Source: Escherichia phage vB_Ec-M-J. From it: a stretch of DNA of 64,000 nt. This document shows positions 5,165 to 34,335 of the stretch, in pieces. Position 1 is the stretch's first letter; each line of letters starts with the position of its first letter. The notes below the pieces were generated by a model, which made no database searches, was not told the DNA's origin, and saw nothing but the letters and a program-made list of their open reading frames with translations. Made by a program: the position numbers and the translations under genes. The stretch is from sequence record OQ718158.1; one strand, given 5' to 3'.

Positions 5165-5428
5165 ATGAATATCCAAGATAGATTGCAATTGTTGCACACA
5201 CTTGAAGAAGCTGCTTTTGAACTTGTTAATAAAATTGCACAAGAACTCCCAAAAGGAACCAAAGTTCGTGTTCGTGAAATGGATTATTTAACGGGAAAAA
5301 TTGATGAAAAAGTTCTAACAGTGATCAAAGTAACATACTATGAATCAGAGTTATCAATTCAATGTAATTCAGATAATGGTTACGTTTCCTACTATGGTAC
5401 AGATGTAGATATAGAGGTAATAAAATGA
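5165..5428 (+). CDS. hypothetical protein
   Basis: ATG at 5165 directly after the upstream stop; inside track ORF 5120..5428. Confidence 0.5.
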   Translation: MNIQDRLQLLHTLEEAAFELVNKIAQELPKGTKVRVREMDYLTGKIDEKVLTVIKVTYYESELSIQCNSDNGYVSYYGTDVDIEVIK

Positions 5429-6567
5429 CCCTTTTACAAATATATGAAGATTTAATGCACTTATGTAATACCCGTGATGCTTTCTTTTATGTGGATCATA
5501 AAAGTCCTGCTGGTGGAACATATCGTGTATTCAGTTATCGTCTAGCATCATATACCGATTTCATGCAACCCAATGCATTAGAAACCCGTGGTTCTATGTG
5601 GGAAATTGATGAAGACGGTGATATGATTCGTTGTGCTGCTCGTACTATGAAAAAGTTCTTCAATGCTTACGAAAATCCTGCTACAATGTTCCCTGCTGAT
5701 ACCTCATTCGATGACATTGCAGTAGTGATGCCTAAGTTGGATGGTTCAGTAATCAGTACTTACCGTGATAATGATGGTGTAATTCGTTGTAAATCACATA
5801 CTGCATTGTATTCAGACCATGCGATTAACAGTACTCGTCTTCTCAATGAGAACCAAAATTTGTATCAATACATTGACGAAGCAGACCGTTTGGGCTATAC
5901 TGTTAATCTGGAGTATACAAGTCCAGAGTACCGTATTGTATTACCATATCAGGTTGAACAATTATTTGTACTAAACGTTCGCAATCGTAAGAGTGGTGAA
6001 CTATTATGTGGTTCTGCATTACGTAATAAGTTCCCATGCCTTGCACAGTACAGTACTAACATGACAGGTAAAGATATTCATTACACTTTCCCTGCTCGTG
6101 CTACATTCAAAGAAAGTGTTGAAGAAGTTAAGAAAATGCTTGACATTGAAGGTTTTGTGTGCATCCTAAATAATGGTACAATGTGCAAAATCAAAACCGA
6201 CTGGTATTGTTCTTTGCATTTAACGAAAGACAGTATTATAATCGATTCCCATTTATATGAAGCTGTATTAAATGGTTCGAGTGATGATTTAAAACAGTTG
6301 TTCAGTACTGACGAATATGCTACCCAAAAGATATTAAGAATGGAACAACTAGTCTTTTCGTGCTATAATGCTTTACAAGATGAAGTTGAAAGCTTCGTCA
6401 AGGAACACAAGCACTTGGAGCGAAAGGAATTCGCTAAGAAGGTTCAGGAGTGTTTAACTAATGAACTGAATCGTCAGGGCTTGGCCTTTGCAATGTACAA
6501 CAATAAGAAAGTCGATTACAAAGAGACTCTTATTAAGTACATGAAAATTGTACTAAAGGATTTTTAG
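5425..6567 (+). CDS. rnlA: RNA ligase 1 (T4 RnlA-like)
   Basis: Recalled similarity to T4 Rnl1 along the N-terminal half (GTYRVFSY, KFFN, KLDGS lysine-adenylation motif, VKSDWY-like segment). Confidence 0.85.
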   Translation: MTLLQIYEDLMHLCNTRDAFFYVDHKSPAGGTYRVFSYRLASYTDFMQPNALETRGSMWEIDEDGDMIRCAARTMKKFFNAYENPATMFPADTSFDDIAVVMPKLDGSVISTYRDNDGVIRCKSHTALYSDHAINSTRLLNENQNLYQYIDEADRLGYTVNLEYTSPEYRIVLPYQVEQLFVLNVRNRKSGELLCGSALRNKFPCLAQYSTNMTGKDIHYTFPARATFKESVEEVKKMLDIEGFVCILNNGTMCKIKTDWYCSLHLTKDSIIIDSHLYEAVLNGSSDDLKQLFSTDEYATQKILRMEQLVFSCYNALQDEVESFVKEHKHLERKEFAKKVQECLTNELNRQGLAFAMYNNKKVDYKETLIKYMKIVLKDF

Positions 6568-7386: not shown

Positions 7387-7389
7387 AGG

Positions 7390-8322
7390 ATGCCAACTAT
7401 CACACTAACAGTTGGATTGCCTGGGTGTGGTAAAACTACATGGGCAGTGCAAGAGATTAAAAAAGCCAAATCCAAGACTATCAACATCAACCGTGATGAT
7501 ATTCGTGAATCTATGGCTGGGTCACATGATGCTTACAAATTCAACGATGCTAATGAGCAGTACGTAACTAATTTACAGTTCAGTGCAGCAAATTCAGCCG
7601 CAGAGAATGGTTGGAACATCATCATATCCGATACGAACCTTAAACAACATTTCCGTAATCTATGGAAAGTATGGGCTATAGATAATGGTTATGATTACAA
7701 AGAAAAGAATTTCTATGATGATTTTGTACCTAATGAAGACCGTGGTGCAGATGTTCATGAATTCTTTAAGATTAAAGAGTTCGTAAAACTTTGTAAGAAA
7801 TATAACCTCCAGCGTGAGCGTTCAGTACAAGATAATATCATTGACACTATGGCAGATACGTACTATTATAGTAAGGCATTACACATTGGTTACTATGGTA
7901 ATTCACGAGAAGCTGCTATTATCGTTGATATCGACGGTACTCTTGCTCATAAATGGGGACGTAACCCGTTCGATGAAAGTACTGTACTCCAGGATACACC
8001 AGACGAAGAAGTTATTTTGTCGATTATCGCAGAAGCAGTTTTTCATAAACGCAAGATTATCGTCATGAGTGGGCGTACTGAAGGGTGTCGTGCTGATACC
8101 GAACAGTGGCTTAAGAATTGGGGTGTTCCTTACGATGCGTTGTTTATGCGAGGCATCGATGATAAACGTCCTGATGATGTTGTTAAATTCGACCTGTACA
8201 TGAAAAATGTGGTTGATCATTACGATGTTAAAAAGGTTTATGATGACCGCAATCAAGTTGTTTTTATGTGGCGTAAGCTACTTGGGTTGAAAGTTTTCCA
8301 AGTGGCAGAAGGAAATTTCTAA
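7390..8322 (+). CDS. pseT: polynucleotide 5'-kinase / 3'-phosphatase (T4 PseT-like)
   Basis: N-terminal P-loop GLPGCGKTT; HAD-type phosphatase motif DIDGT; C-terminal WQVA..G.F as in T4 Pnk. Confidence 0.9.
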   Translation: MPTITLTVGLPGCGKTTWAVQEIKKAKSKTININRDDIRESMAGSHDAYKFNDANEQYVTNLQFSAANSAAENGWNIIISDTNLKQHFRNLWKVWAIDNGYDYKEKNFYDDFVPNEDRGADVHEFFKIKEFVKLCKKYNLQRERSVQDNIIDTMADTYYYSKALHIGYYGNSREAAIIVDIDGTLAHKWGRNPFDESTVLQDTPDEEVILSIIAEAVFHKRKIIVMSGRTEGCRADTEQWLKNWGVPYDALFMRGIDDKRPDDVVKFDLYMKNVVDHYDVKKVYDDRNQVVFMWRKLLGLKVFQVAEGNF

Positions 8323-12461: not shown

Positions 12462-12465
12462 TAAT

Positions 12466-12735: not shown

Positions 12736-12745
12736 GGAAATAGAA

Positions 12746-12973: not shown

Positions 12974-13383
12974 AATTATATTGCTTAACAAACATGTACT
13001 GTCAAGGTGTCCAAGCTGGCATTCAAGCATTTCATGCTGGTGTTAAACTAATTAAAGAATATGAAGGTACTGCTTTCAGTACTATTATTGATGAATGGTA
13101 TTATGACCACGAAACTATTGTAGTACTAAATGCTGGTGGTCATGATAAGTTAAATTCTTATTATGATGACCTTTGTAAGCAGGGGAAAGTTCCATTCGCT
13201 AAATTCAATGAAGCCGGATTAAATGATGCAACTACATGTGTAGCAGTACTATGTACATCTGAAATGGTTGAAGACATGTCTGTTATGCGTATGAATCTTC
13301 CTGCTGGGGATCAACTAATGCAAGTAAAATATGGTGCATTGTTTAACACATTAAAAGCAATTAGCACAATGAGGACTGTTTGA
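12964..13383 (+). CDS. hypothetical protein
   Basis: Track ORF. Confidence 0.5.
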   Translation: MEMKLYCLTNMYCQGVQAGIQAFHAGVKLIKEYEGTAFSTIIDEWYYDHETIVVLNAGGHDKLNSYYDDLCKQGKVPFAKFNEAGLNDATTCVAVLCTSEMVEDMSVMRMNLPAGDQLMQVKYGALFNTLKAISTMRTV

Positions 13384-14582
13384 TGGATTTTCCAGAGAAG
13401 TTATTTGTGGCTCGTTCATATGTAAATCATAACCAAGTTACTGGTTACATTATAGATGCCACAAAATCACACACAAAAGCGTTTGAGACTAAAAAAGAAA
13501 AGGCCGAGTACTGGGCTAAGAAAAACAATCTACCGTCACTATGGATTGATAATGTGCCTACAATTGGATTTTCTGTGGTACATAAGCTCACTGTTCATGC
13601 TCGTGAAACATACTTCACCATTCGTCACCCTGAAGGTTTCGAGTTCTTGGTGAGTGCTAAAAACATGAACGACCTTATCATCAACAATGATATTGTTAAG
13701 GGTGTATTTGTTGAACCTATGTTCTTCAATAATAGTTTAGAACTAATTAACGGTAAAACTAAAACCTTTGCTAAATTGGTTGAGAAGGAGAATAAGAAAG
13801 AACAACAAAAAGAAGTTGTTTCTAAATTGAAAGTGGGTGATGGTTTTAGACACAATAAAGAAGATTACTATTATTGTGGTAAAGTAAATGCTATTTGTAT
13901 CAAGAAAACTAAAGAGTTTTCATTTTCTGATAAGAGTTCCAAGTATCACTTAGTATATAATACTACTCGTGGGACATATGCTCTTAATGCTCGTCTTGAA
14001 ACTTATGCGTTAGAACCAAGTGCTGCACTGAATGTAAAAACTACAGTTCAAGATGAAATTGTTAAAGCTAATGCATTTTGGCAAAATATCCAACGAAATC
14101 GCAGTAACCCATTATGTGAAAGCAATATTCCAGTACTGATAAGTGATAAGTCGTTTAAAGCACAAGATTTGAAAGTAAAGTACGAAGAAATCAATCCTGA
14201 TGATATAATGAGTAATGGACGATTCAATGAGAACGTACCGTTCATGTGTAAAGTTGATGAACAGGCATATCGTGTTTTCTTTGGTGTAAAGAACAATACA
14301 ACCAGAAGTTATTATGGTCGTAATGGTGATTATATTCTTCAATACACTGATGTATTTGAACGATACAGTGCGTATCCAGTTGAAATTGATGCTAATGGTA
14401 TTATGACAATGGATGTGGATTTAAACGAACATGTATCATTTGGTACATGGAACGGATACCGTTCTCCTTTCTTCCCACCGACTGAAAATAAAACATCATC
14501 AACTCGTTACTACCAAGAAAAACCTTGTCACGTCCAGCTATCACTAAGTAATAAACTTTATATTGGAAAGTATTATCTATAA
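13380..14582 (+). CDS. hypothetical protein (400 aa)
   Basis: Long ORF with no motif I recognise. Confidence 0.6.
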   Translation: MMDFPEKLFVARSYVNHNQVTGYIIDATKSHTKAFETKKEKAEYWAKKNNLPSLWIDNVPTIGFSVVHKLTVHARETYFTIRHPEGFEFLVSAKNMNDLIINNDIVKGVFVEPMFFNNSLELINGKTKTFAKLVEKENKKEQQKEVVSKLKVGDGFRHNKEDYYYCGKVNAICIKKTKEFSFSDKSSKYHLVYNTTRGTYALNARLETYALEPSAALNVKTTVQDEIVKANAFWQNIQRNRSNPLCESNIPVLISDKSFKAQDLKVKYEEINPDDIMSNGRFNENVPFMCKVDEQAYRVFFGVKNNTTRSYYGRNGDYILQYTDVFERYSAYPVEIDANGIMTMDVDLNEHVSFGTWNGYRSPFFPPTENKTSSTRYYQEKPCHVQLSLSNKLYIGKYYL

Positions 14583-14593
14583 GGGAATATACA

Positions 14594-16012
14594 ATGAGCA
14601 TTTTAGCAATTCTTGAAAGCATTAAAAATACTAGCAGTACTCTGGGTAAAAAAGCTATTCTTGAACAAAACAAAGATAATCAAACATTACAAAAAGTACT
14701 GAAATATACACTAGACCCTTCAATTGTAAGTGGGTATAAAAAGCTACCACAAGCTGATGATGTATACCAACATATGACATTAGAAGAAGCAATTGATAAG
14801 CTAGAATGCATTTACAAACGTGGTGTGACCGGAAATGCTGGGCGTGACTTCATTGCTTCAGTACTGGGTTCAGTATCAGAAGATGACCAAGAAGTTCTTC
14901 GTAAAATGCTCACGAAGAACCTTGATTGTGGTATCCAAGAAAAGAACTGCAATGATGTGTTCGGGAAAGGTTTTATCAAAGACGAACCATACATGCGTTG
15001 TTCTTTGATTGACAAAAAGACTGCAAAGAACATTAACTTCAAAGATTATGGTTATGCTATATCAGAAGTGAAAATGGATGGTCAGTACTTGAACCACGTT
15101 GTCATTAATGGTTCATTAACTTCTACATCCCGTAATGGTAAACTATACGACTTCCTGGGTTGTCGTGATGGTGAAATGGCAGGTCTTGCTCACATCATCC
15201 AAAGTAAAGATGAACGTTTTAGTAGTGGTGTAGTCTTTATGGGTGAAGGTGTAGTACTGGACAATGATGGAGAAACCATTCTCCCACGCACTACTGGTAA
15301 CGGTATTATCCAGAAAGCTGGTAAAGATAGCATCAGTCAGAATGAAGCAATGCGTACTGTATTTGTTCTATGGGATGTTGTTCCATATGATGCATTTTGT
15401 GAAGGTGTATGGAATGTAAAACGTAAAGAACGTCGCGAGATCTTAGTAGATGCAATTAACGAACTCGGTAGTGATTTTGTTCGTATGGTTGGATTCCGTA
15501 AAGTTCTAAACATCAAAGAAGCATTTGAGTACAATAGTGAACTAATGAACGAAGGTGAAGAGGGTTCAGTACTGAAATGTGAAGATGGTATCTGGAAATC
15601 TCACACTTCTCCTAAGCAATTGAAAATGAAACTTAAAATGCAATTGGACTTGCGTATTGTTGGTTTCAATGAAGGTGAAGGTAAGCGTAAAGGTAGTCTT
15701 GGTTCTTTACAACTGGAAAGTGCTTGTGGTACATTGAAAGTTAATGTAGGTACTGGAATTAAAGAGAAAGACGCAGAATGGACGTTTAAAACCATTTGGG
15801 AAAGAATGCAAGAACTCATTGGTCAAGTAGTGACAGTAGAGTGCAATGATATTGTGTTCGATAAGCGAACTGGCGAGCCATCACTATTTTTACCAGTGTT
15901 TATTGAATTTAGATTTGACAAAAACACCTGTGACGACTATACTCGTATCTTAGAAATTCGTGATAGTGCTGTTGAGGTGTTCTCTAATAGTATTCTTGAA
16001 TCACTCGGTTAA
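14594..16012 (+). CDS. ATP-dependent DNA ligase (T4 gp30-like)
   Basis: N-terminus resembles T4 DNA ligase (ILEQNKDN); adenylation motif KMDGQ; AAGGGAA RBS. Confidence 0.9.
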   Translation: MSILAILESIKNTSSTLGKKAILEQNKDNQTLQKVLKYTLDPSIVSGYKKLPQADDVYQHMTLEEAIDKLECIYKRGVTGNAGRDFIASVLGSVSEDDQEVLRKMLTKNLDCGIQEKNCNDVFGKGFIKDEPYMRCSLIDKKTAKNINFKDYGYAISEVKMDGQYLNHVVINGSLTSTSRNGKLYDFLGCRDGEMAGLAHIIQSKDERFSSGVVFMGEGVVLDNDGETILPRTTGNGIIQKAGKDSISQNEAMRTVFVLWDVVPYDAFCEGVWNVKRKERREILVDAINELGSDFVRMVGFRKVLNIKEAFEYNSELMNEGEEGSVLKCEDGIWKSHTSPKQLKMKLKMQLDLRIVGFNEGEGKRKGSLGSLQLESACGTLKVNVGTGIKEKDAEWTFKTIWERMQELIGQVVTVECNDIVFDKRTGEPSLFLPVFIEFRFDKNTCDDYTRILEIRDSAVEVFSNSILESLG

Positions 16013-16031
16013 TCATTTATAGGAGGTAATT

Positions 16032-16823
16032 ATGAAATTTGTTGTAACGTCAGACGTACACGGTGGCACTGATTACCTCCATAGTGGTGATTACAGTGAT
16101 ACAGTTCTGATTATTGCAGGGGACTTTGATGAAGCTAAACGCAGTCGTTATCGTACTGGTATCGAATCCCTGTGCAAGCAGTTCAAGAATGTAGTACTGG
16201 TTCCTGGTAATCATGAGTACTACGGTTCAAACATTCACAAGACTAATAAAGTACTGTCCGATATGCAAGATGAGATTCCAAATTTCATCTTTTTGCAAAA
16301 CAAATTTGTATGGCTGGATGGTGTACTGCTGGTTGGTAGTACACTGTGGACTGACTTTGATAAAGGCAATGCACTGGTTAAGTTTGATGCTCAACAAAAG
16401 ATGAATGATTATAAACACATTCGTCATGGAACAACATCAGAACCGTGGAAACGTAAGCTCAAACCTGATGATGTTGAGTTCATGCATTATCAGGATAAAC
16501 AATTTATCAAAAATTCAGTTAACACAGTTCGTCTAATGAATGATAATGATTTCAAGGTTGTGGTGGTAACACATCATGCACCAAGTTATCAGAGTGTATC
16601 TCCGAGATACAAGAATGACTCACTGAATGGATGTTATTGTTCTGATATGGACCAGTATATCGAAGATTTGGGTGCTGATGTTTGGATTCATGGTCACGTT
16701 CATAGTAGCTTTGACTACATCATTGGGAAAACTCGTATCATTTGTAACCCAAGAGGTTATGAATCTTACAGTGGTGCATGTGAGAACTTCGATTACGATC
16801 CTAAATTTGTATTTGAAATCTAA
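16032..16823 (+). CDS. calcineurin-like metallophosphoesterase
   Basis: Motifs SDVHGG, AGDFDE, GNHEYY, HHAP, GHVH. Confidence 0.75.
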   Translation: MKFVVTSDVHGGTDYLHSGDYSDTVLIIAGDFDEAKRSRYRTGIESLCKQFKNVVLVPGNHEYYGSNIHKTNKVLSDMQDEIPNFIFLQNKFVWLDGVLLVGSTLWTDFDKGNALVKFDAQQKMNDYKHIRHGTTSEPWKRKLKPDDVEFMHYQDKQFIKNSVNTVRLMNDNDFKVVVVTHHAPSYQSVSPRYKNDSLNGCYCSDMDQYIEDLGADVWIHGHVHSSFDYIIGKTRIICNPRGYESYSGACENFDYDPKFVFEI

Positions 16824-17670: not shown

Positions 17671-18366
17671 ATGGTTGAACAATTCAATTTTGGTGGTTAT
17701 GCTGGTGGTGAAGTTCGCAACATTTCTATTCCTTATGTAGTTGAAAAAGTTAATGGTGCAGAACGTACTTATGATCTAGCATCTCGTATGATGCAAGACC
17801 GTATCATTTTCCTTGATACTGACTTCAATGACCAAATGGCACATATCATCAAGCAACAATTGGTGTGGTTGGATTCTCAGGGTTCTGAACCAATTACCTT
17901 CTACATTAGTTCTCCTGGTGGTTCAGTACACGCAGGTTTGGGTATCGCTGACATTGCTAAGTCTTGTGTATCTCCTATCCGTACAGTAGTAATGGGTTAT
18001 GCAGCATCAATGGGTTGCTATACACAATCAGTAGTTGGGACTAAAGGTTTCCGTCTAGGTGGTAAGCGTTCTTACTTCATGTGTCATCAAGTAAGTTCCG
18101 GTACTCAGGGTCTGATTACCGATCAGAAGATTTCTTTGAAACACTCTGACGCATTGAACACACTATTGACGAAAGAAATTGCTGAAGCAGTTGGTGTATC
18201 ACACGAACAACTACTGAAAGATGCTGACCGTGACCTGTGGTTGAACGCTGAAGAAGCACTCGAATACGGTGAACATGGTTTCATTGATGGTATCATCCTT
18301 GGTCCACGCAACGAAGAAGGTAAGTATCTCGTCAAACGTCGCGGTGGCGTGGAAGAGTGGGTCTAA
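17671..18366 (+). CDS. ClpP-family serine peptidase
   Basis: ClpP-like SSPGGSVHAG, catalytic-Ser context AASMG, His context CHQ; GAGGAAAA RBS. Confidence 0.8.
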   Translation: MVEQFNFGGYAGGEVRNISIPYVVEKVNGAERTYDLASRMMQDRIIFLDTDFNDQMAHIIKQQLVWLDSQGSEPITFYISSPGGSVHAGLGIADIAKSCVSPIRTVVMGYAASMGCYTQSVVGTKGFRLGGKRSYFMCHQVSSGTQGLITDQKISLKHSDALNTLLTKEIAEAVGVSHEQLLKDADRDLWLNAEEALEYGEHGFIDGIILGPRNEEGKYLVKRRGGVEEWV

Positions 18367-18417: not shown

Positions 18418-18708
18418 ATGAAAGTTCTTGTACGTAATAATACTGAAGTCAATGATGTGTTGGATGATTCAGAGTTTATTAATGTCGCATTAGATCAGAT
18501 TAGTGCAGTAGCTCTTGAATTGAAAGGTGTTGACGAGGCAGAACGAGTACTCAATGGTTTTTCTATTGTTCTCGAACTAATGCAAGAAGTTCTTATTAAA
18601 AAGAACATTAATCCAATTAACGCAGTTCAACACGCAGAAGCTATGCGTCAAGAACATGGCACATTCTCAGATAAAAAATTCATCAGTACTGACGAGGGGA
18701 AAGAATAA
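18418..18708 (+). CDS. hypothetical protein
   Basis: ATG at 18418 with GGAG RBS; the longer track ORF would include the terminator hairpin. Confidence 0.5.
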   Translation: MKVLVRNNTEVNDVLDDSEFINVALDQISAVALELKGVDEAERVLNGFSIVLELMQEVLIKKNINPINAVQHAEAMRQEHGTFSDKKFISTDEGKE

Positions 18709-18709
18709 T

Positions 18710-19156
18710 ATGTCTAATGCACAATACAAAGAAGGTTCTGCCGCGTTTAAAAACAAAGTAGTTTTTAACAATGAACAGCTAAAATCACAGCACCCACTAT
18801 TCCGTCAAGGTTATCGTGCTGCACAAGCTGAAGCTATGAAGAAAAACAACGTAACATTCCCAACAACTCTGTATGATATTCCTAAACGTCCATCAGTGTT
18901 TAAAGCAGAATGGACTGACATTATGGCAGCAACTAAACGTCCTCGTTTTGCTAAACTTCACACTGATGAAGGTCGCTGGATGTTGATGGGTATTATGAAA
19001 GCAGTTGAGAAACAGGCACATACCATCGTTCGTTACAAAGACGTTGTAGCTATGGTTGATAAAGCATTTGATCTTATTCTCCAGTACGGTTATGATGAAG
19101 GTGTACTAACTGTATCTGATTGTGAGCAGTACCAGTACACTCCATTCCAGAAATAA
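18710..19156 (+). CDS. hypothetical protein
   Basis: ATG at 18710 with GAGGGGA RBS; within track ORF 18656..19156. Confidence 0.55.
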   Translation: MSNAQYKEGSAAFKNKVVFNNEQLKSQHPLFRQGYRAAQAEAMKKNNVTFPTTLYDIPKRPSVFKAEWTDIMAATKRPRFAKLHTDEGRWMLMGIMKAVEKQAHTIVRYKDVVAMVDKAFDLILQYGYDEGVLTVSDCEQYQYTPFQK

Positions 19157-21016: not shown

Positions 21017-21050
21017 AAAAAAAAGGAGCCATAAGGCTCCTTTTTCTTTT
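21014..21050. terminator. rho-independent terminator (A-run/T-run flanked)
   Basis: AAAAAAAAA-GGAGCC-ATAA-GGCTCC-TTTTTCTTTT. Confidence 0.75.
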
Positions 21051-21137: not shown

Positions 21138-21165
21138 TAGACATTATACATTAGTGTGATATAAT
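21138..21165 (+). promoter_or_regulatory. sigma70-like promoter, extended -10
   Basis: TAGACA 21138-21143, 16-bp spacer, TGtGATATAAT with TATAAT at 21160-21165. Confidence 0.5.
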
Positions 21166-21300: not shown

Positions 21301-21909
21301 GTGGTACGATTATGTAAAGAAATCATCCAATCTATTATTATTATTTTCTTAATTAACTTTCCTGCAAGTGCAGGTGTTGAAAGAAAAAGTATCATTAGAT
21401 ATGATGAATCTAAACAGACAGTTCAGTTCATTTCAACTTTAACTGAAAATACTGTAAACCGTTTGATGGTTTTTAGAGAAACACACCCATTTGACACTAT
21501 CATCATTACGTCACCTGGTGGTGATTTTGATGCGGGAGTGGCACTAGGAAATTTTGTCAATGATAACAATTTAACAATTATTGTTGAAAGATATTGTAAT
21601 TCTTCTTGCACTATCGCATTCTTTAGTGCTAATATAGAAAACAGATACATGATGAAGGACTCAATTCTAGGTCTACATAATGTGTCAATCGAAAGTAAAG
21701 CACGAAATAGTGATGACACATACATATCAGTTCGCCAAATGACTATTTTTGCTGAACAGCTATCAACTAAGGTTGGTGTTCTATTTGCGTTATATGCAGC
21801 GAATGGTATTCCTCCAGAATTGTTAGTGGAGGTTAGTAAGGTTCGTGGTAATGAAGTTGTGAGACTTACACCAGATCAGTTGCTCGAATTAGGTAGTATC
21901 ATTCATTAG
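21301..21909 (+). CDS. putative secreted ClpP/SppA-fold serine peptidase-like protein
   Basis: Hydrophobic signal-like N-terminus (IIIIFLINFPASA); ClpP-like ITSPGGDFDAG motif; GTG start with AGAGGG RBS. Confidence 0.5.
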   Translation: MVRLCKEIIQSIIIIFLINFPASAGVERKSIIRYDESKQTVQFISTLTENTVNRLMVFRETHPFDTIIITSPGGDFDAGVALGNFVNDNNLTIIVERYCNSSCTIAFFSANIENRYMMKDSILGLHNVSIESKARNSDDTYISVRQMTIFAEQLSTKVGVLFALYAANGIPPELLVEVSKVRGNEVVRLTPDQLLELGSIIH

Positions 21910-22001
21910 TATTAGATACAAAATAATAATATTATAATAAGAGGATGATAAAGTGGTACATCCTTTGTTATAAGTTCACATACACTAGGAGTGTATAAAC
22001 T

Positions 22002-22262
22002 ATGACAAATTTACAAAACTTAACATCTCTTGTTTTTTATGCAACAACTATTGTATATTGCATTACATTAGTTTTAACATGTTTCATCTATAAAGACTAC
22101 AAACGTGGTTTTATGGATTCCAGTACACACAAATTTGCATCCAAGTTAGAAGCAGGAATTTACTATGTTCTATCAATTTCTTATGGAGCATGTTTACTTA
22201 CACTAGGGTTGCTGATATACTGGTTGTATACGGCACTTTTTGCACAAGGAGTTATTTCATGA
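22002..22262 (+). CDS. small membrane protein
   Basis: Two hydrophobic helices; AGGAG RBS. Confidence 0.45.
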   Translation: MTNLQNLTSLVFYATTIVYCITLVLTCFIYKDYKRGFMDSSTHKFASKLEAGIYYVLSISYGACLLTLGLLIYWLYTALFAQGVIS

Positions 22263-22852
22263 CTTGTATTATCGCTCACACAAATGGCACATCTTCCTTC
22301 ATCGCTGGTGATAAATTAGGAAGCAATGGTTTCACTAAAGCAGTTCAAACTGAGCCTAAAGTGTTTGAGAAAGAGTTCATTAAACTCAATGAGGATGGTC
22401 TTTCTCGCACTAAAGAAGTAATGGCGTTGGGGTATACTACCTCGTTCCGCATGGGACAGTTGTTGAATTACAACCTAACTCTACCAGAACAAGTTGCAGG
22501 GGAAACCTTTTCACAGTATCTAGTACTGAAAGTTATTCCTATCATTCGTCAAATGTTTAAAGATGAATGGGGTGCTCGTGATGCATCACAAGATGTTGGT
22601 GGTGGTCAGTTCATTATTCTTCATAATCATACGATTTATGAAGTTCAAGAAGACTTTTCAGTACTGCAACCTAAAACACAAATTACTGCTGTCGGAAGTG
22701 GGACTTATCATGCAATTGCATCCATGTCAGCGTATATTGAAGTTCAAGAAGAAACCAATGTTCAGTTACATGAACGTGTTGAGTCTATTTTCAAAATTGT
22801 TAGTGATAATGTAACAAGTGTTAGTCCAGAGTTTGATATTTTGAAATACTGA
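22259..22852 (+). CDS. HslV-like Ntn-hydrolase (proteasome beta-subunit-like) peptidase
   Basis: After Met, N-terminal Thr (TCIIA..NG...IAGD) as in HslV; C-terminal AVGSGTYHA resembles HslV GSGG; AAGGAG RBS 7 nt upstream of ATG 22259. Confidence 0.55.
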   Translation: MTCIIAHTNGTSSFIAGDKLGSNGFTKAVQTEPKVFEKEFIKLNEDGLSRTKEVMALGYTTSFRMGQLLNYNLTLPEQVAGETFSQYLVLKVIPIIRQMFKDEWGARDASQDVGGGQFIILHNHTIYEVQEDFSVLQPKTQITAVGSGTYHAIASMSAYIEVQEETNVQLHERVESIFKIVSDNVTSVSPEFDILKY

Positions 22853-22883
22853 GAATAATAATTATAAAGAGAGAGTGTATCTG

Positions 22884-23075
22884 ATGGCATACATAATTTA
22901 CGAGTGGATTTTTTGTTTCATAGTTGTGTTTATTTGTGTGGTGTTATACAATCACACTAAATGTTTATACCGAGAATTCAGGAATGGTAATAAACATGGA
23001 CACAATAAGTGGATGTATGTCTATCATATTGCTATCATTGTATTTTTAGTATTAAACTTGATACTTTTTATATAA
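22884..23075 (+). CDS. small membrane protein
   Basis: Hydrophobic ORF; ATG at 22884 after an AG-rich RBS. Confidence 0.4.
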   Translation: MAYIIYEWIFCFIVVFICVVLYNHTKCLYREFRNGNKHGHNKWMYVYHIAIIVFLVLNLILFI

Positions 23076-23084
23076 GGAGTAAAT

Positions 23085-23837
23085 GTGATATCAGATAAAT
23101 TTATACAAAATGCTGGGAACAAAAGATTACTTATAATTTCAGGGGCAGGTCTTTCAGTTGAGAGCGGGATGGAACCATTCCGCTTTGATGATGGGTTGTG
23201 GGACAATTTCAAAATTAATGATGTTTGTAACATTGCACGACTTAGTTCTAAGTATCATGTAGTTCATTCATTTTATAATACATTGCGTGTAAAATTAGGT
23301 GAATGTCATCCTAATGAAATGCATTACTTTATTAAATCATTAGAAGATTTGTATGGTGATTGTTTTTTACACATGACTTCTAATATGGATGATCTATATA
23401 CTAGAATTGGTGGAACCGAACTCAAACTACACGGCAATTTATGTGAAGTAATTGAGAACTTTTCTATTAATACCGATGATTACAATGTCATTAATTGTGG
23501 TTATGAACCATATATTCCTAAAGCTGATGTTTTTGCAAAACCAAATGTAGTGATGATTGGTGAGTATCATCGCTACGTTGATGGGGTACGTCTCCCCATT
23601 TATGAAGAACGAAATGAAGTGTTGAAAAGTCTCACAGAAAATGATACAGTTGTAGTTATTGGAAGTAGTGATACAGTACTGGTATGGTCCAGACTAGCTG
23701 GTGCACTTCCATGCTATAGTGTAAATGTTAACATCCGAAAAAATGATAATGATTTTCTTTTTAATGAGAAGGTCATCAAACCTGCGACGAAAGCAATTCC
23801 ACAGATTGAAACTATAATTAAGGAACGAATGCGATGA
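23085..23837 (+). CDS. Sir2-family (sirtuin-like) NAD-dependent deacylase/ADP-ribosyltransferase
   Basis: GAGLSVESG..FR..GLW; TSNMD (TQNID-like); VVVIGSS; GTG start with AAGGAG RBS. Confidence 0.7.
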   Translation: MISDKFIQNAGNKRLLIISGAGLSVESGMEPFRFDDGLWDNFKINDVCNIARLSSKYHVVHSFYNTLRVKLGECHPNEMHYFIKSLEDLYGDCFLHMTSNMDDLYTRIGGTELKLHGNLCEVIENFSINTDDYNVINCGYEPYIPKADVFAKPNVVMIGEYHRYVDGVRLPIYEERNEVLKSLTENDTVVVIGSSDTVLVWSRLAGALPCYSVNVNIRKNDNDFLFNEKVIKPATKAIPQIETIIKERMR

Positions 23838-24385
23838 GTAAAGCGGAAGTACCACTGGGGCAAATGGGGAAACGTGCAAATTTTGTATTCTGTTTCTTTT
23901 ATGCAAAAGAATGTACCCCATACGCTGGTTATGAACTAAATGATATCCCAGTGGTTAACTTAGTACTCCTACAAGTGCGTTGGGATGGATTGTTGGGTGC
24001 ATGTGGTGGAACAGTTGAAAGTACTGATAAGTCATTAGAAGATGCGTTACAGCGTGAAGTTCAAGAAGAAATGAACTATATCATTGACAAAAGTCGCCTG
24101 TCTCCATTAAAATCACTTGAATTGTTTCCAGAGGGACACTCACATAGCTATAGTTATGAAATGACTTATGCTGAACTTAAAAAACTTCGTGATAATTATG
24201 CATATGGCAAACATGCTAGTGCAGAGGTGGCTGGTGTAAATTTATGTCACATCTCTCGTTATTCGAAGGGACAAAATCGAGAAGCAGGATATAATAATCT
24301 TATGACACAGAACTTCATCGGAACTGCGAAACAAGAATTAGAGTATCTTGTACAAAAAGAAAACTTACTAATCAGCTATCTATAG
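23834..24385 (+). CDS. Nudix-fold hydrolase-like protein
   Basis: Near-canonical Nudix box GGTVE..x..ALQREVQEE with one extra residue. Confidence 0.5.
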   Translation: MSKAEVPLGQMGKRANFVFCFFYAKECTPYAGYELNDIPVVNLVLLQVRWDGLLGACGGTVESTDKSLEDALQREVQEEMNYIIDKSRLSPLKSLELFPEGHSHSYSYEMTYAELKKLRDNYAYGKHASAEVAGVNLCHISRYSKGQNREAGYNNLMTQNFIGTAKQELEYLVQKENLLISYL

Positions 24386-24394
24386 GAGTTTAAA

Positions 24395-24715
24395 ATGTCG
24401 TACTCAATGTTCTTGGATGATATTCGTGATTATCAAAAATATTATCCTGACCAAGAGATGGTATTGTGTCGTGACTACGAAAGTGCATGTGAATACGTAA
24501 TCAAAAATGGAATTCCAGCATTTGTCTCATTTGACCATGACTTGGGTGACTTGAGTACAGATGAGAAAACGGGATACACTTTTGCCAAATTTCTAATTGA
24601 TTATATGTTTGAGCATAATATTAAAGAACCATTTAAATACTATGTACATAGTAGTAATCCAGTAGGGAAAGTTAATATTGAAACTTACTTAACTAATGGA
24701 TTTAATGCACTATGA
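24395..24715 (+). CDS. hypothetical protein
   Basis: Track ORF; TAGGAG RBS. Confidence 0.5.
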   Translation: MSYSMFLDDIRDYQKYYPDQEMVLCRDYESACEYVIKNGIPAFVSFDHDLGDLSTDEKTGYTFAKFLIDYMFEHNIKEPFKYYVHSSNPVGKVNIETYLTNGFNAL

Positions 24716-25014
24716 TTTCAACACATATCAAGAGTCTTATTTGCACAACACTGTTAGGTATAGGTGTTCTATGGTTCAGTTCATATCATGAGAACACTAA
24801 ACGTTACAATATTCATTACAATGCAGCGACTGTAACAGGATTAGGTCAATGTAATGAAAATAAATGCTCATTTACTTATAAAACCAGTACTGGTGAAGTT
24901 CGTAATGGGTTATCAAGAGATCCAGTATCAATTGGTCAACTAGTTTACCAGGAATGCTGGGAGGAAAAGGCTCGTGGTTCAAGATGTTATGTTGAATACG
25001 AACCGAGCATGTAA
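24712..25014 (+). CDS. membrane-anchored hypothetical protein
   Basis: N-terminal TM helix; ATGA overlap. Confidence 0.5.
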   Translation: MISTHIKSLICTTLLGIGVLWFSSYHENTKRYNIHYNAATVTGLGQCNENKCSFTYKTSTGEVRNGLSRDPVSIGQLVYQECWEEKARGSRCYVEYEPSM

Positions 25015-25075
25015 TATTCCGAGTCACTAACCATTAGTCGAGTACAAGGATGTACTCATAACTCAAGGATGTTTT

Positions 25076-26515
25076 ATGAAAAAATATACAATTGACACAA
25101 ACGTACTACTATCTGATCCAAATGCTACCATTGCTTTTGATGGAGCAGCTATCATTCTACCGTTCACAGTACTTGAAGAATTGGATTCAATTAAAAGTCG
25201 TAATGTGGATGTTTCCCGTGATGCTCGTGTTGCAATCCGTAACATTGAAGCTATCCTTTCTGATGCATCACATGAAGAAATTAGTAGTACTGGTGTTAAT
25301 ATTGCTGATGTTCATACTAATATGAGTCCTGAAAGCAAATTGTTTGTTATTACAAGCGAAGAAGCTGAAGCACTAATTCGTACTGCTGGTAACGAAGAGA
25401 AAGTTCAAACTCTTCTAAAAAGCACAGTACCAGATGATAAAATCATTTTAGTAGCATTAGCAACTGATTCAGTACTGGTTACCCGTGATATCAATATGCG
25501 TATCAAGGCTCTAAGCTACGGGGTGGAAGTTCAAGATTATCGTCATGATATCGTGATTGGTGATAGTGATTTGATTCACATTGGTCAACATCACCTTGAC
25601 CTACATTTCTGGGATGTGTATAGTAATCTGACTGATGTATCTATTCAGTCTGAACAAGTTGGTCGTCGTTTGTACCACTACATTCCAAAAAGCTTGATTG
25701 AACATATCATGCCACAAAATATTTGCATCGGTGATTACCTATATGATAATGCTGATGTTCTATTTGTGTACGAAGGTCAATCTGCAATTGAAGAAGATGA
25801 TGGTACTTTAACACCAGAAGATATTCTTGTATTCCAAGATATTGGACAATCTGTTGCTCTACGTGCTAAAGTGTGGGATATTAAGGCTAAGAATATTCAA
25901 CAAGCACTAGCAATCAACAGTATCCTAGATCCTGATGTTCATCTAACAGTACTGTTAGGTTCAGCAGGTACTGGTAAAACACTAATCACCATTGCAACTG
26001 CACTAGAGTTAGTTCTAGAGAAGAAAAAATACGACCGTATCATCTTCTCCAAAACACAAGATTCCCAATTCGAAGACATTGGTTTCTTGCCTGGTTCTGA
26101 AGCAGAGAAAGTGATTCCTTTCTGTGGTGCGGCAATCGATGCGTTGGAATTCCTACACAAAGATGATGCTAACCCACAAGGCAGTATCGAAGAAATCATG
26201 AAACGCAATGTTATCCAATTCAAAGCACTAAACTTCGTTCGTGGTCGTTCTTTCACAAATACTATCCTAGTAGTTGATGAATTCCAGAACATCACACCTG
26301 CTCAGGCAAAAACAATCTTGACTCGTGCAGGGATGAACTGTAAAGTGGTTATTATGGGCAACTTGAGCCAGATTGACTCTAAATTCATTAGTCCAGTAAA
26401 CAGCGGCCTAACTTATGTTACCGAGAAGTTCAAGAACTGGGACGGCTGTCGTGTAATCGAACTAGAAGGTGTCGTTCGTTCACCACTAGCAGAATTTGCA
26501 GAAGAAAATATGTAA
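25076..26515 (+). CDS. phoH: PhoH-like ATPase with N-terminal PIN domain
   Basis: Walker A LLGSAGTGKT, Walker B VVDEFQN; N-terminal PIN-like acidic residues. Confidence 0.85.
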   Translation: MKKYTIDTNVLLSDPNATIAFDGAAIILPFTVLEELDSIKSRNVDVSRDARVAIRNIEAILSDASHEEISSTGVNIADVHTNMSPESKLFVITSEEAEALIRTAGNEEKVQTLLKSTVPDDKIILVALATDSVLVTRDINMRIKALSYGVEVQDYRHDIVIGDSDLIHIGQHHLDLHFWDVYSNLTDVSIQSEQVGRRLYHYIPKSLIEHIMPQNICIGDYLYDNADVLFVYEGQSAIEEDDGTLTPEDILVFQDIGQSVALRAKVWDIKAKNIQQALAINSILDPDVHLTVLLGSAGTGKTLITIATALELVLEKKKYDRIIFSKTQDSQFEDIGFLPGSEAEKVIPFCGAAIDALEFLHKDDANPQGSIEEIMKRNVIQFKALNFVRGRSFTNTILVVDEFQNITPAQAKTILTRAGMNCKVVIMGNLSQIDSKFISPVNSGLTYVTEKFKNWDGCRVIELEGVVRSPLAEFAEENM

Positions 26516-26873: not shown

Positions 26874-26903
26874 ATCCCTGTCTTTTGGCAGGGATTTTTT
26901 CTT
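26874..26903 (+). terminator. rho-independent terminator
   Basis: ATCCCTG-TCTTTTGG-CAGGGAT followed by TTTTTTCTTTC. Confidence 0.7.
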
Positions 26904-27910: not shown

Positions 27911-28557
27911 TGAAAAATGTATCACAAGAAAAGATTCTGTACCTTGCAAAGTACAATGGTGGATTTAATATTACCAGTTGTGAATATCATGGTAACATGG
28001 CTAAAATGATTGACGAGCTACTAGAAGGTAAAATGCTCCGTTGGGAGACAAATGACCTTTGGTACGAATATGCGGGTCAACAATGGGAAAGTGACTACGA
28101 TAATGCAATTCATACGTATACAATTACTAAAAGTGGTGAAGTACGTTTGGCTATCATGCGTTGTGCTTACACTTACAAAAATTTCAAAGATGAAGAAAAG
28201 CATATTCGCCGAAATGAAGAGTTAGTACACCTAATGGGTGAAGCTGGCATTACAATGCATGACTTGTTCAATGAACCAAGATGGACTGGGAATCTGACCA
28301 AAGCAGAATACAAAGCATTGCGATACATCCAAGTACCAGAAATCAACAAACCAAAAGAATGTATTGATGATGGTGAACTAAGCCTCAAAAATGTATTTGA
28401 AAGTACCAGTACTGAAAGTATTGCTGATCTTTCAGTTCAGATGGCTATCAAAGCTATGGAACTATTCAAAACACAATATGAAGGACACAGTGCTGAAGAA
28501 GTAGAGCGTGAGTTCATTACGCGAGTACAAATTGCATTACATAAATCAAAAAAGTAG
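27910..28557 (+). CDS. hypothetical protein
   Basis: Track ORF. Confidence 0.55.
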   Translation: MKNVSQEKILYLAKYNGGFNITSCEYHGNMAKMIDELLEGKMLRWETNDLWYEYAGQQWESDYDNAIHTYTITKSGEVRLAIMRCAYTYKNFKDEEKHIRRNEELVHLMGEAGITMHDLFNEPRWTGNLTKAEYKALRYIQVPEINKPKECIDDGELSLKNVFESTSTESIADLSVQMAIKAMELFKTQYEGHSAEEVEREFITRVQIALHKSKK

Positions 28558-28563
28558 GTTCAT

Positions 28564-28743
28564 ATGAAAATTTTACTTGTACTAATCGCCGTTCTTATGG
28601 TATTATCTTGTTCAGTTAGTAATGGTTCATACATTTACGTATCAGTATTTGAAGAAGCACCAACGAACTGTGTATTAACTCACACTGGTATTGTGTTAGT
28701 TAATGGTAAACCATCAATCGAGTACTTATGTATAGGTGATTAA
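28564..28743 (+). CDS. small lipoprotein (59 aa)
   Basis: Own translation MKILLVLIAVLMVLSCS...; lipobox LSC; below track cutoff. Confidence 0.4.
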   Translation: MKILLVLIAVLMVLSCSVSNGSYIYVSVFEEAPTNCVLTHTGIVLVNGKPSIEYLCIGD

Positions 28744-28746
28744 ATT

Positions 28747-28980
28747 ATGAAATTTATTTCTATTGCAATTGTTTCAGCACTCATGATGTTAGTAACAGGC
28801 TGTGCATCTAAAGTTCAGGAGGCTGATGCAGAGTTCATTCGCCAGAATTTGACTAAACTTAACTACGATGGCACATTGTATGCTTGCCATGAGATGCGTC
28901 ATGGGCAAGATCTTAATCTCATGTGCAGGAAGATTGTGAATCGCAAACGTCTTAATACTGTTCCGAAGGATGCACAATGA
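28747..28980 (+). CDS. small lipoprotein
   Basis: Signal peptide with lipobox VTGC. Confidence 0.5.
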   Translation: MKFISIAIVSALMMLVTGCASKVQEADAEFIRQNLTKLNYDGTLYACHEMRHGQDLNLMCRKIVNRKRLNTVPKDAQ

Positions 28981-32058: not shown

Positions 32059-32194
32059 ATTTGTACAAATATAAAGCAATGTGACCTTTCCTTGATATAG
32101 GTCAAGAGAAATACCCTGTTCTGACGCTATAATGGTGTCTGGTGATGTTAAATAACTTCACCCCCAGATGATTTCAAAATACAAGGAAAGTAAA

Positions 32195-34000
32195 ATGCAA
32201 TTAGATAAATTATATACTGACGTAACAAATTTCCTAAATCAGAGCAATACTGATCTTACAAATGAAAATGCAAACAAAGATGCGAAATGCGTCAATACAC
32301 ACAGGGATTTACTTGCTGGTATCCTATCTAAGCATTATTCACAAGATGTTATTCCAAAGGAGCTAATGCAGTGGCATAATGATGGTTATGGTCACATTCA
32401 TGATTTAGACTACTATATCAGCCCATTAACTAACTGCTGCTTGGTTAACTACCCAGATATGCTAAAAAATGGATTTACCATTGGTTGTGCAAAAATTGAA
32501 GAACCAAAGAGTTTTAGTGTAGCATGTACAGTACTGACACAAATTGTACAAGCTGTTGCTAGTTCCCAGTACGGTGGTCAATCGTTGGCTCATATCGACG
32601 TGGGTCTTGAACCTTACGTCCAAAAGTCGTGGGATAAGCTATTAGCGAAGCAAAAGGCATATAATCTCAGTACTGAATACATTGAGGAAGAATTACGAAA
32701 AGAAGTCTATGATGGGTGTCAAACCTTACTTTACCAGACAAATTCAATGATTAGTACAAATGGTCAAGCAGCATTCATTTCTCTTAGTTTGGGACTGAAT
32801 ACTTCAAAATTTGGTAAATTAATCACTGAACAGTACTTAAAAGTACATGAGAATGGTTTAGGTAAAGATAAGATTACTCCTGTGTTTCCTAAAGTAATTT
32901 TCTTTTTACAGGACGGAATCAACATGAATAGCGATGATTGCAACTATGACATGAAACAGTTGGCAATGCGTTGTGCATCGAAGAGAATCTACCCAGACTT
33001 CGTTTCTGTGCCGTTAAATCACAAAGTTACAGGAAGTGGCAGTACAGCAGTAACTCCGATGGGTTGTCGTTCATTTTTAGGAAAATGGGAAGATTCCAAT
33101 GGAAATGAGCAATATAACGGTCGTTTCAACTTAGGCGTAGTTTCTATCAATTTACCTCTAATTGCTCTTGAAAGTGCCTCAGATGGAGAGTTTTTTGATA
33201 AAATAGACGAGCATATGAATATTGCATATCGTGCTCAGATGAACCGTGTAGAGCGTTTAAAAGGCACAAAAGCGAAGCAGAATCCGATTTTGTTCATGGA
33301 AGGTGCACTTTCACGTTTAGGGGCAGAAGAAACGATTGACAAGCTATTTTATAACGGATATGCTAGTATTAGTATTGGTTACGTTGGTTTAGTTGAATGT
33401 TCAGAAATTCTGACTGGTTCTATCAGTAAGGAGTTCTGCATGTCAGTACTGAATTATATGAAAGTAAAATGCGATGAGTTCAAAAAAGAGAGTAATATAG
33501 CTTTTAGTCTATATGGAACCCCAGCAGAGTCACTTTGCTACAAATTTGCACGTTGCATCGAATCTAAATACCCTTCAGTACTAAAACGTGATTACATCAC
33601 AAATTCCTTCCACCAACCAGTATGGGTAGCAAGTTCACCATTTGATAAGTGGAGTTACGAAGAGGGTTTTGCTTACCTCAGTAATGGTGGAAACATCAGT
33701 TATGTTGAATCACCCAACCTAAGTAACAATATTCAAGCACTTGAGACTTTAGTCAATTACGCTTACACAAAGATCCCATATTTTGGTATCAACCAGCCAA
33801 TTGACCAGTGTTACGAGTGTGGGTATAAAGGTGAGTTCAGTGTAGATAAACACGGTTTTCATTGTCCAGTATGTGATAATCGCAATGAGAAGACAATCTC
33901 AGTGATTCGTCGTGTTTCTGGATATTTGGGGAACCCATCGTCTCGTGGATTCAACAAAGGCAAACAACAAGAATGTTGTGAGCGTATACAACACAAATAA
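32195..34000 (+). CDS. nrdD: anaerobic ribonucleoside-triphosphate reductase NrdD
   Basis: N-terminus resembles T4 NrdD (NENANKD, TNCCLV); C-terminal zinc site CYECG...CPVC; glycyl-radical motif RRVSGYLG; ATG 32195 with AAGGAAAG RBS. Confidence 0.9.
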   Translation: MQLDKLYTDVTNFLNQSNTDLTNENANKDAKCVNTHRDLLAGILSKHYSQDVIPKELMQWHNDGYGHIHDLDYYISPLTNCCLVNYPDMLKNGFTIGCAKIEEPKSFSVACTVLTQIVQAVASSQYGGQSLAHIDVGLEPYVQKSWDKLLAKQKAYNLSTEYIEEELRKEVYDGCQTLLYQTNSMISTNGQAAFISLSLGLNTSKFGKLITEQYLKVHENGLGKDKITPVFPKVIFFLQDGINMNSDDCNYDMKQLAMRCASKRIYPDFVSVPLNHKVTGSGSTAVTPMGCRSFLGKWEDSNGNEQYNGRFNLGVVSINLPLIALESASDGEFFDKIDEHMNIAYRAQMNRVERLKGTKAKQNPILFMEGALSRLGAEETIDKLFYNGYASISIGYVGLVECSEILTGSISKEFCMSVLNYMKVKCDEFKKESNIAFSLYGTPAESLCYKFARCIESKYPSVLKRDYITNSFHQPVWVASSPFDKWSYEEGFAYLSNGGNISYVESPNLSNNIQALETLVNYAYTKIPYFGINQPIDQCYECGYKGEFSVDKHGFHCPVCDNRNEKTISVIRRVSGYLGNPSSRGFNKGKQQECCERIQHK

Positions 34001-34008
34001 GGTACATT

Positions 34009-34335
34009 ATGGATTTAAAGCCAATTGTGGTTAACAAATATAAAGAACCGTATGATGTGTATATCGGGCGTGGGTCTAAATGGGGAAACCCATTTACCCA
34101 TATCAGTGATAAACAGACCAAAGCCGAGTTCATTGTTGCTACAAGGGAAGAATCAATCGAAAAGTTCAGAGAATACATTATTGAGCGTATTTCTAATGGA
34201 GAAGTTAAGATTGATGATTTACTTGAGTTAGCAGGGAAACGTCTTGGCTGTTTCTGTAAACCGAAATCATGTCATGGTGATGTTCTCGTTGAGATAGTGA
34301 GTGCAATATTAGATGAATTACCAGACGATAATTAA
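34009..34335 (+). CDS. DUF4326-like protein (YIGRG...WGNPF family)
   Basis: VYIGRGSKWGNPF signature recalled from the DUF4326 family; function unknown. Confidence 0.5.
   Translation: MDLKPIVVNKYKEPYDVYIGRGSKWGNPFTHISDKQTKAEFIVATREESIEKFREYIIERISNGEVKIDDLLELAGKRLGCFCKPKSCHGDVLVEIVSAILDELPDDN

Follow-up and report, generated by a model that had tools for sequence, protein, structure and literature searches.

The subject of this analysis is a 64,000-nucleotide stretch of Escherichia phage vB_Ec-M-J (OQ718158.1), referred to below as the window, and in particular its interval 23085-24385, which consists of exactly two open reading frames (ORFs) whose ends overlap by 4 nt: a sirtuin gene followed by a Nudix gene. 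A first-pass annotation, made from the sequence alone, had read this gene pair correctly, but the pair is actually the front of a five-gene block, and the three further members, encoding a cREC protein, a membrane protein and a PIN-PhoH2 protein, had been overlooked. Our favoured reading, to which we assign a rough probability of 0.4, is that the block is the jumbo-phage form of the sirtuin-centred neighbourhood for NAD+-dependent RNA end processing and repair described by Iyer et al. in 2022 (PMC9503650). We favour it because the recurrent partners of the sirtuin clade are RNA ligases and end-healing phosphoesterases; because fusion of the Nudix and cREC domains implies a substrate with two groups, which ADP-ribose 1'',2''-cyclic phosphate would fit; because the clade has diverged consistently from the deacylases in its zinc cysteines, the Gln of its TQNID motif and its low CobB score; and because the window itself carries Rnl1, Pnkp, an RlaP-family nucleotidyltransferase and a CCA-adding enzyme. 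The sirtuin-Nudix system as such is already known, being annotated in GenBank and computationally described in the 2022 paper.

The sirtuin block and its proteins

The window region 22000-26000 is 99% identical to the Escherichia phages Turkey3, CMSTMSU, EC.P1, Ecwhy_1 and fEgEco12 and ~80% identical to 121Q and PBECO4. Because of these identities, we assign the window by sequence comparison to an arm of an Asteriusvirus-type, Rak2-like jumbo phage. Its GC content is ~35%, almost every gene lies on the plus strand, and searches of the window identified no tRNA genes and no Rfam families. In several GenBank records of the relatives, the sirtuin gene is labelled 'Sir2-like protein' or 'NAD-dependent protein deacylase' and its neighbour 'NUDIX hydrolase'. 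The five co-oriented genes of the block and the signals around them are:

21020..21045, plus strand: terminator-like hairpin (11 bp stem and T-run) at the end of the preceding transcription unit
21138..21165, plus strand: best sigma-70-like promoter upstream of the block (TAGACA-16-TATAAT, extended TG, 11/12), a consensus match only
23085..23837, plus strand: sirtuin of 250 aa with a CobB/class-III-like fold
23834..24385, plus strand: predicted NUDT16-family Nudix pyrophosphatase of 183 aa, its start overlapping the sirtuin stop by 4 nt
24395..24715, plus strand: cREC (cyclic-phosphate-processing receiver-like) protein of 106 aa, a predicted phosphoesterase
24712..25014, plus strand: membrane protein of 100 aa with an N-terminal hydrophobic segment and a Cys-containing C-terminal part, overlapping the cREC stop by 4 nt
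25076..26515, plus strand: PIN-PhoH2 protein of 479 aa, with an N-terminal PIN endoRNase and a PhoH-type P-loop RNA helicase
26874..26895, plus strand: first strong terminator-like hairpin downstream of the block

Stop and start codons overlap at two of the junctions, Sir2/Nudix and cREC/membrane. Since strong terminator-like hairpins were found only at 21020-21045 and 26874-26895, the layout suggests that the block belongs to a single putative transcription unit of ~21.2-26.9 kb, together with upstream ClpP-like and HslV-like genes. The ClpP-like gene, a divergent one, and the HslV-like gene lie directly upstream of the sirtuin. Three protease-like genes were identified in this part of the window (17671-18366, 21301-21909 and 22259-22852), one of them a clear ClpP (1.3e-41), and an HslV-like gene is also present upstream of the block in EJP2-type relatives.

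The sirtuin ORF has a GTG start with an AAGGAG ribosome-binding site ahead of it. Its product matched Pfam SIR2 (PF02146; E-value of 1.3e-19, 71.3 bits against a cutoff of 24) and PHROG 2162 (1e-73). The motifs named by the first-pass annotation (GAGxS, FR, GLW and (T)xN(I/M)D) are all present, as G20-A-G-L-S24, F32-R33, G37-L-W39 and T98-S-N-M-D102, together with the catalytic H116-G117. GAGLS, N100, D102 and H116 are invariant or nearly so in both of our alignments, A1 and A2, and F32-R33 is nearly invariant in A1 only. The best sequence match in the PDB is CobB (2e-21). An AlphaFold2 model (pLDDT 91) still builds the beta-rich small domain despite missing cysteines, and Foldseek placed E. 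coli CobB closest to this model (TM-score 0.76-0.84), with archaeal Sir2 and SIRT5 next. A defence-type SIR2 NADase was excluded, as there was no PADLOC match and none among the top 50 Foldseek matches, which were all deacylase-type sirtuins. A macro-linked system of the SirTM type was excluded as well, the sole macrodomain gene of the window lying 36 kb from the sirtuin.

These sequence and fold matches favour a rival explanation, in which a CobB-like sirtuin resets host or phage protein acylation and the Nudix, perhaps with the distant macrodomain, hydrolyses the resulting O-acyl-ADP-ribose. GAG, FR, N100, D102, H116 and the G159-E160 loop are all conserved, GenBank and PGAP use the name 'NAD-dependent protein deacylase', and O-acetyl-ADP-ribose is hydrolysed by Nudix and macro enzymes. 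We nevertheless regard this explanation as doubtful. The protein has no Cys pairs after the HG motif and so lacks the Cys4 zinc ribbon. The pairs are likewise missing from 77 of 80 viral homologues, while 76 of the 80 nearest cellular homologues (27-35% identity) have kept them; to our knowledge, zinc-binding cysteines are needed in all characterised deacylase sirtuins. The sirtuin also scores far under every NCBIfam deacylase cutoff, reaching 85-89 bits where the CobB equivalogs NF040867 and NF001755 demand 318-320. Finally, protein deacylation leaves no role for cREC or PIN-PhoH2, and it does not explain why the clade is adjacent to RNA ligases and end-healing enzymes in other phages.

The TQNID motif has diverged too: its Gln is replaced by Ser in the window (TSNMD), and the form T(T/A/S)N(V/I/M)DD is found in 70 of the 80 viral homologues. 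On these counts, the loss of the zinc cysteines is a phage-specific trait of the clade. The partner genes of the block were not found beside the 80 nearest bacterial sirtuins, which are ordinary zinc-containing CobB-like proteins.

The Nudix neighbour matched Pfam Nudt16-like (PF22327; 1.5e-18, 67.7 bits, cutoff 27) and Pfam NUDIX (2.4e-7), and it aligned with human NUDT16 in the PDB over the entire domain (9e-12). The Nudix box that the first-pass annotation had called near-canonical, R74-E-V-Q-E-E79, aligns residue for residue with the human box, and the invariant residues that are common to human NUDT16 comprise R49, G52, G55, G58, G59, R74, E75, E78, E79, H104 and E131. Among 1.84 billion (1.84e9) representatives, the Nudt16-like family forms 223 clusters (E<=1e-3), and its domain is found fused to cREC, Ham1/ITPase, HD and NMNAT domains. 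The Nudix of the block occurs in only 74 phage records (tblastn), essentially Rak2-like jumbo phages. Human NUDT16 cuts the pyrophosphate of ADP-ribose irrespective of the attached group (PMC12879935).

The third gene matched Pfam PF20274 (1.9e-23, 83.4 bits, cutoff 27), a family defined in jumbo phages in 2021 as a predicted cyclic-phosphate or cADPr-processing enzyme (Iyer et al., PMC7824862) and called experimentally uncharacterised in 2022 (PMC9503650). Over 71 homologues, D8, D9, R11, D47, H48, D49, H85, S86, N88, P89 and G91 are invariant. The protein matched nothing in the PDB by sequence, and a fold search was used in its place; it has a receiver (CheY-like) fold with a conserved acidic pocket and no histidine-kinase partner. 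By tblastn, cREC occurs in 140 phage records. The 100-aa protein that follows matched PHROG 14661, 'membrane protein' (2.6e-38), and the last product of the block matched Pfam PIN_4 (4.5e-20), Pfam PhoH (8.5e-45) and the NCBIfam model 'RNA 5'-3' helicase PhoH2' (1.9e-45).

Conservation, partners and proposed function of the block

For the locus survey, IMG/VR was scanned with the sirtuin alignment, and the 80 returned loci were searched by local tblastn. Sixteen of them form a Rak2-like subset, with sirtuins that are 43-90% identical, and 15 had enough flank for gene order to be checked. Single-protein pattern scans of IMG/VR and a word-index search for the Nudix yielded close relatives only; alignment-based scans and an exhaustive HMMER search were used instead.

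The order Sir2>Nudix>cREC>membrane>PIN-PhoH2 was kept in all 15 loci; the outcome that the first-pass annotation had named as refuting, a Sir2-Nudix adjacency not conserved in relatives, did not occur. The block order also emerges from the annotation of GAP32, Serratia phage BF, RaK2, Munch and XbC2. RaK2 and Munch have Nudix and cREC as separate genes, and GAP32, BF and XbC2 have them fused; the fusion implies one substrate for both domains, with a pyrophosphate as well as a phosphate that is cyclic or terminal. The order remains constant while sequence identity drops to 43-50% and the flanks reshuffle, NAMPT, NMNAT, 2H, HslV-like and ClpP-like genes all being variable. The Sir2-Nudix order is far from chance. 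In the RaK2 sirtuin (6258-6995 of the compared RaK2 stretch), GAG reads GNG and the segment with FR and GLW is lost; the N, D and catalytic His are kept. Judging by these residues, the sirtuin of the RaK2 lineage may be inactive, though the whole block is retained there.

Gene order could also persist without functional coupling, if independent auxiliary enzymes had stayed syntenic by descent of a conserved arm, for example a NUDT16-like IDP/ITP house-cleaning or RNA-decapping enzyme beside an unrelated sirtuin. Rak2-like phages are one related group, so that shared ancestry accounts for part of the synteny in the 15 loci, and the Nudt16-like domain occurs in contexts of nucleotide sanitation through its fusions to Ham1/ITPase and HD. 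One Rak2-like sub-lineage has an additional ORF between Sir2 and Nudix, and RaK2 keeps the block with a sirtuin that is devoid of GAG and FR. We still consider such an uncoupled origin very unlikely, as it fits poorly with an order that outlasts both sequence divergence and reshuffling of the flanks, with Nudix-cREC fusions in several lineages, with overlapping stop and start codons at some block junctions, and with the linkage of the sirtuin clade to cREC in independent lineages.

Beyond the Rak2-like phages, the sirtuin clade was identified by tblastn in 986 of 50,697 phage records, phage T5 included. In T5-like phages, the sirtuin gene follows nrdD and precedes a HAD_SAK_2 'Swiss-army-knife RNA repair' phosphatase. 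In rV5- and phi92-like phages, the order is metallophosphoesterase, Rnl1, cREC, metallophosphoesterase, sirtuin and ATP-dependent ligase. On two contigs of uncultured phages, a distant cREC gene immediately precedes the gene for an Rnl2-type RNA ligase; a T4 Rnl1-type ligase is also encoded on one of the two, together with a kinase. No partners other than RNA ligases and end-healing phosphoesterases recur with the sirtuin clade across three unrelated phage groups.

These partners lead back to RNA end processing. In the prediction of Iyer et al. (PMC9503650), the sirtuin strips 2'-phosphates from RNA in the manner of Tpt1/KptA, and its partner enzymes cREC and Nudix open cyclic phosphates or process or destroy ADPr>P. 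Applied to the window, RNA cleavage during infection would leave 2',3'-cyclic phosphate ends, which cREC would open. The sirtuin, using NAD+, would then move the remaining 2'-phosphate onto ADP-ribose and release nicotinamide and ADP-ribose 1'',2''-cyclic phosphate, as with Tpt1/KptA. This would parallel sirtuin chemistry, with an oxygen nucleophile on C1'' followed by His-activated attack of the 2''-OH; we infer the steps from that chemistry to 2'-phosphate transfer. The cyclic-phosphate by-product would be broken down by cREC together with the NUDT16-like enzyme, yielding AMP and ribose phosphates, and Rnl1 and Pnkp, encoded elsewhere in the window, would heal and seal the ends. PIN-PhoH2 might unwind or cleave RNA, its place in the scheme being loosely defined. 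A more tentative proposal is that the zinc-less phage sirtuin may be no protein deacylase at all and may use NAD+ to place ADP-ribose on a phosphate group of a nucleic acid, as in a Tpt1-like removal of RNA 2'-phosphates, with the NUDT16-like protein and cREC destroying the ADP-ribose cyclic-phosphate by-product; taken as a whole, we judge this joint claim possible but not probable.

Several observations weigh against RNA end processing. By sequence and by structure, the sirtuin comes closest to protein deacylases, whose active-site motifs it also carries. PIN domains are nucleases that depend on metal and produce 3'-OH ends; PIN-PhoH2 would therefore not itself be a source of cyclic-phosphate substrates. 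A Pnkp of the T4 type is by itself able to remove 2',3'-cyclic phosphates, which makes the need for a 2'-phosphotransferase less than obvious. Rnl1 and Pnkp are encoded 15-17 kb from the block. The 2H gene of the published type-1 neighbourhood had no tblastn match in the window, and in BF this gene matches the anti-CBASS Acb1 family, not a dedicated RNA-repair enzyme. Our literature searches brought up no biochemical or genetic test of the block proteins and no experiments on phage-encoded sirtuins, on cREC or on NUDT16-like enzymes of phages.

The flanks of the block in other Rak2-like phages bear on another explanation. The NARP2 enzymes, NMNAT-Nudix and NAMPT, are encoded just upstream of the block in 15 of the 16 loci, and a 2H gene lies immediately upstream of the sirtuin in 14. 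The BF copy of the latter, gp110 (5504-5950 of the compared BF stretch; annotated '2H / RNA ligase'), matched Pfam Acb1 (anti-CBASS) at 3.6e-15, a match that was not considered in the RNA-repair interpretation of 2022. The NARP2 enzymes are reported to counter NAD depletion (PMC13464706), and phage Nudix, Macro and cREC proteins have been proposed to act against soluble ADP-ribose signals (Iyer et al., PMC9503650, PMC7824862). The block might then belong to an anti-defence island, in which Nudix-cREC would destroy NAD-derived immune signals or toxic ADP-ribose derivatives, or strip ADP-ribose from RNA, DNA or protein. The linkage-independent cleavage by NUDT16 (PMC12879935) and the resemblance of the window macrodomain to DarG and SCO6735 are in line with such a role.

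We consider counter-defence unlikely, however. The sirtuin consumes NAD+, and we know of no anti-defence role for a sirtuin. Sir2, Nudix and cREC matched no PADLOC or anti-defence family, and cREC is most strongly associated with RNA ligases. In Asteriusvirus, the block is retained without NAMPT, NMNAT or 2H genes in its surroundings: all three are missing from the 121Q locus, and the BF versions of these three proteins had no tblastn match in the window. Asteriusvirus is not among the 40 best NAMPT matches, which reach down to ~38% identity, and Escherichia is absent from the listed hosts of the 325 phage records that match the 2H protein. The ORF at 18656-19156 was considered as the missing 2H gene and excluded; it falls in the same 447-bp size class, but its product does not resemble the 2H protein of BF and was assigned to an unknown PHROG. 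NAD+ reconstitution by NARP1, NARP2 or NARP3 was likewise excluded for the window, in which NAMPT and NMNAT have no match; the NARP3 paper is unrelated to the block genes.

The first-pass annotation had proposed both a coupling, of an NAD-consuming sirtuin to an enzyme that degrades its product, and a purpose, the countering of NAD-depleting or ADP-ribosylating host defences. The former is the best-supported form of coupling, with the Nudix now placed in the NUDT16 family. The latter draws some support from the genes that adjoin the block in relatives; their absence from the window and the consumption of NAD+ by the sirtuin tell against it. The coupling logic was thus probably right and the purpose probably wrong.

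If RNA end processing is what the block does, it would represent a new class of sirtuin reaction, nucleic-acid phosphotransfer, and a first assigned activity for cREC, an idea already published as a prediction. It would also give phages a second, NAD-dependent route to repair RNA damaged by host nucleases and, given the neighbouring NAMPT and NMNAT in relatives, would tie NAD+ supply to RNA repair. The question is relevant to how jumbo phages and T5- and rV5-like therapeutic phages withstand RNA-targeting and NAD-depleting defences. The value of the window lies in a clean minimal block that is free of 2H and NAD-salvage genes; otherwise it offers nothing beyond existing annotation and discussion.

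Other genes of the window

The genes outside the block that enter the argument are:

5425..6567, plus strand: T4 Rnl1-type RNA ligase (Pfam RNA_lig_T4_1 9.7e-15, T4_Rnl1_C 2.6e-16), 16.5 kb upstream of the block
7390..8322, plus strand: polynucleotide kinase-phosphatase (Pnkp), end-healing (Pfam HAD_PNKP 1.8e-43, AAA_33 1.2e-12)
34009..34335, plus strand: DUF4326 protein (3.7e-24), between nrdD and nrdG and overlapping the nrdG start
44211-45449: RlaP-family RNA-repair nucleotidyltransferase
59217/59220..59630, plus strand: second Nudix hydrolase (Pfam NUDIX 7.9e-12, canonical box), beside a CCA-adding enzyme and a glutaredoxin-like gene
60450..60926, plus strand: stand-alone macrodomain protein, closest to BT1257, SCO6735, DarG and Poa1p, 36 kb from the block

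Rnl1 is a candidate sealing partner, and we infer its link, and that of Pnkp, to the block. End-processing genes are abundant in the window (5425-8322, 11703-16823, 44211-45449 and 57995-59110) and comprise the Rnl1-type ligase, Pnkp, two calcineurin-like phosphoesterases, a PTH2-like hydrolase, an ATP-dependent ligase, the RlaP-family nucleotidyltransferase and the CCA-adding enzyme.

The macrodomain, second Nudix and DUF4326 genes had been grouped with the sirtuin pair as a toolkit for handling NAD and ADP-ribose. All three are real genes, but they lie 10-36 kb from the block in other contexts, and their link to it is thematic only. The macrodomain protein scored 21.7 bits against Pfam Macro (PF01661), 0.3 under the cutoff of 22. 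In the PDB, phmmer matched it to BT1257 (6e-16), SCO6735 (2e-11) and Poa1p (1.5e-6), and DarG models from NCBIfam (2e-8) and PADLOC (7e-11) matched it too; from these profiles it is a real macrodomain, as the first reading had it. Standing alone and resembling DarG and SCO6735, the gene fits an anti-ADP-ribosylation role, and its product could be a phage anti-DarT DNA ADP-ribosyl glycohydrolase that is independent of the sirtuin block. The second Nudix had been given a start at 59186 that leaves 19 in-frame stops in the reading; the real start is at 59217/59220. Because the DUF4326 gene, correctly recognised at the outset, is placed between nrdD and nrdG and its product also matches a PHROG annotated as NrdA-like (region 32168-34783), its setting suggests a tie to anaerobic ribonucleotide reductase rather than to the sirtuin or ADP-ribose handling.

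Two further loci were noted in comparison with fEgEco12. Its gene g228, a 972-bp 'WGR domain-containing protein' (12690-13661 of the compared stretch), is absent at window positions 28557-28750, which are a variable locus between near-identical phages; a WGR gene as a PARP-like link was dropped for this reason. An RCC1-repeat protein of 396 aa (34812-36002, minus strand; Pfam RCC1 3.6e-10, RCC1-like domain 3.7e-16) is encoded by one of the very few minus-strand genes. The corresponding gap in fEgEco12 is only ~77 bp, which suggests that the gene was inserted there, between nrdG and the large gene that comes next.

Comparison with known systems

The sirtuin shares its NAD+-binding motifs, catalytic His and fold with the class III deacylases E. 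coli CobB and human SIRT5. It differs from them in its ~28-32% identity, in the missing zinc-ribbon cysteines that mark its phage-specific clade, and in the TQNID motif, which reads TSNMD in the window and T(T/A)NVD across the clade. The defence SIR2 NADases (ThsA, DSR1/2, SIR2-HerA and SPARSA) belong to the same superfamily and also lack the zinc ribbon; the window sirtuin, in contrast, has no PADLOC match, has deacylase-type proteins as its top folds, and is encoded by a lytic phage, not by a host defence island. Its Nudix neighbour resembles human NUDT16 and Xenopus X29 (U8 snoRNA decapping, IDP and ADP-ribose pyrophosphatase) in PF22327, the Nudix box and the equivalents of H104 and E131, whereas identity is ~30% and the sirtuin-cREC gene context has no eukaryotic counterpart.

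Among RNA repair systems, the tRNA healing and sealing pair of T4, Pnkp and Rnl1, has both of its members encoded in the window, and in rV5-like phages Rnl1 is immediately beside cREC and the sirtuin. T4 lacks the sirtuin, cREC and a NUDT16-like partner, and in the window Rnl1 and Pnkp are separated from the block by 15-17 kb. The Tpt1/KptA-2H-Poa1 pathway of tRNA splicing provides the proposed logic by analogy: NAD+ would accept the RNA 2'-phosphate, yielding ADP-ribose 1'',2''-cyclic phosphate, which would then be opened, dephosphorylated and degraded. The match of the window macrodomain to Poa1p (1.5e-6) is a further likeness. The window encodes no Tpt1/ART-fold protein; by the same analogy, the sirtuin is proposed as its substitute and cREC as that of 2H.

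The type-1 neighbourhood of Serratia phage BF (PMC9503650) offers a direct counterpart of the block. The account of Iyer et al. does not mention the conserved 100-aa membrane protein or the NUDT16 affiliation of the Nudix ('nudt16' occurs 0 times). Whereas Nudix and cREC are fused in BF and separate in the window, and BF has the 2H, NAMPT and NMNAT genes that the window lacks, both phages link sirtuin, Nudix, cREC and PIN endoRNase in the same order, with identities to the window of 44% for Sir2, 50% for Nudix-cREC and 69% for PIN-PhoH.

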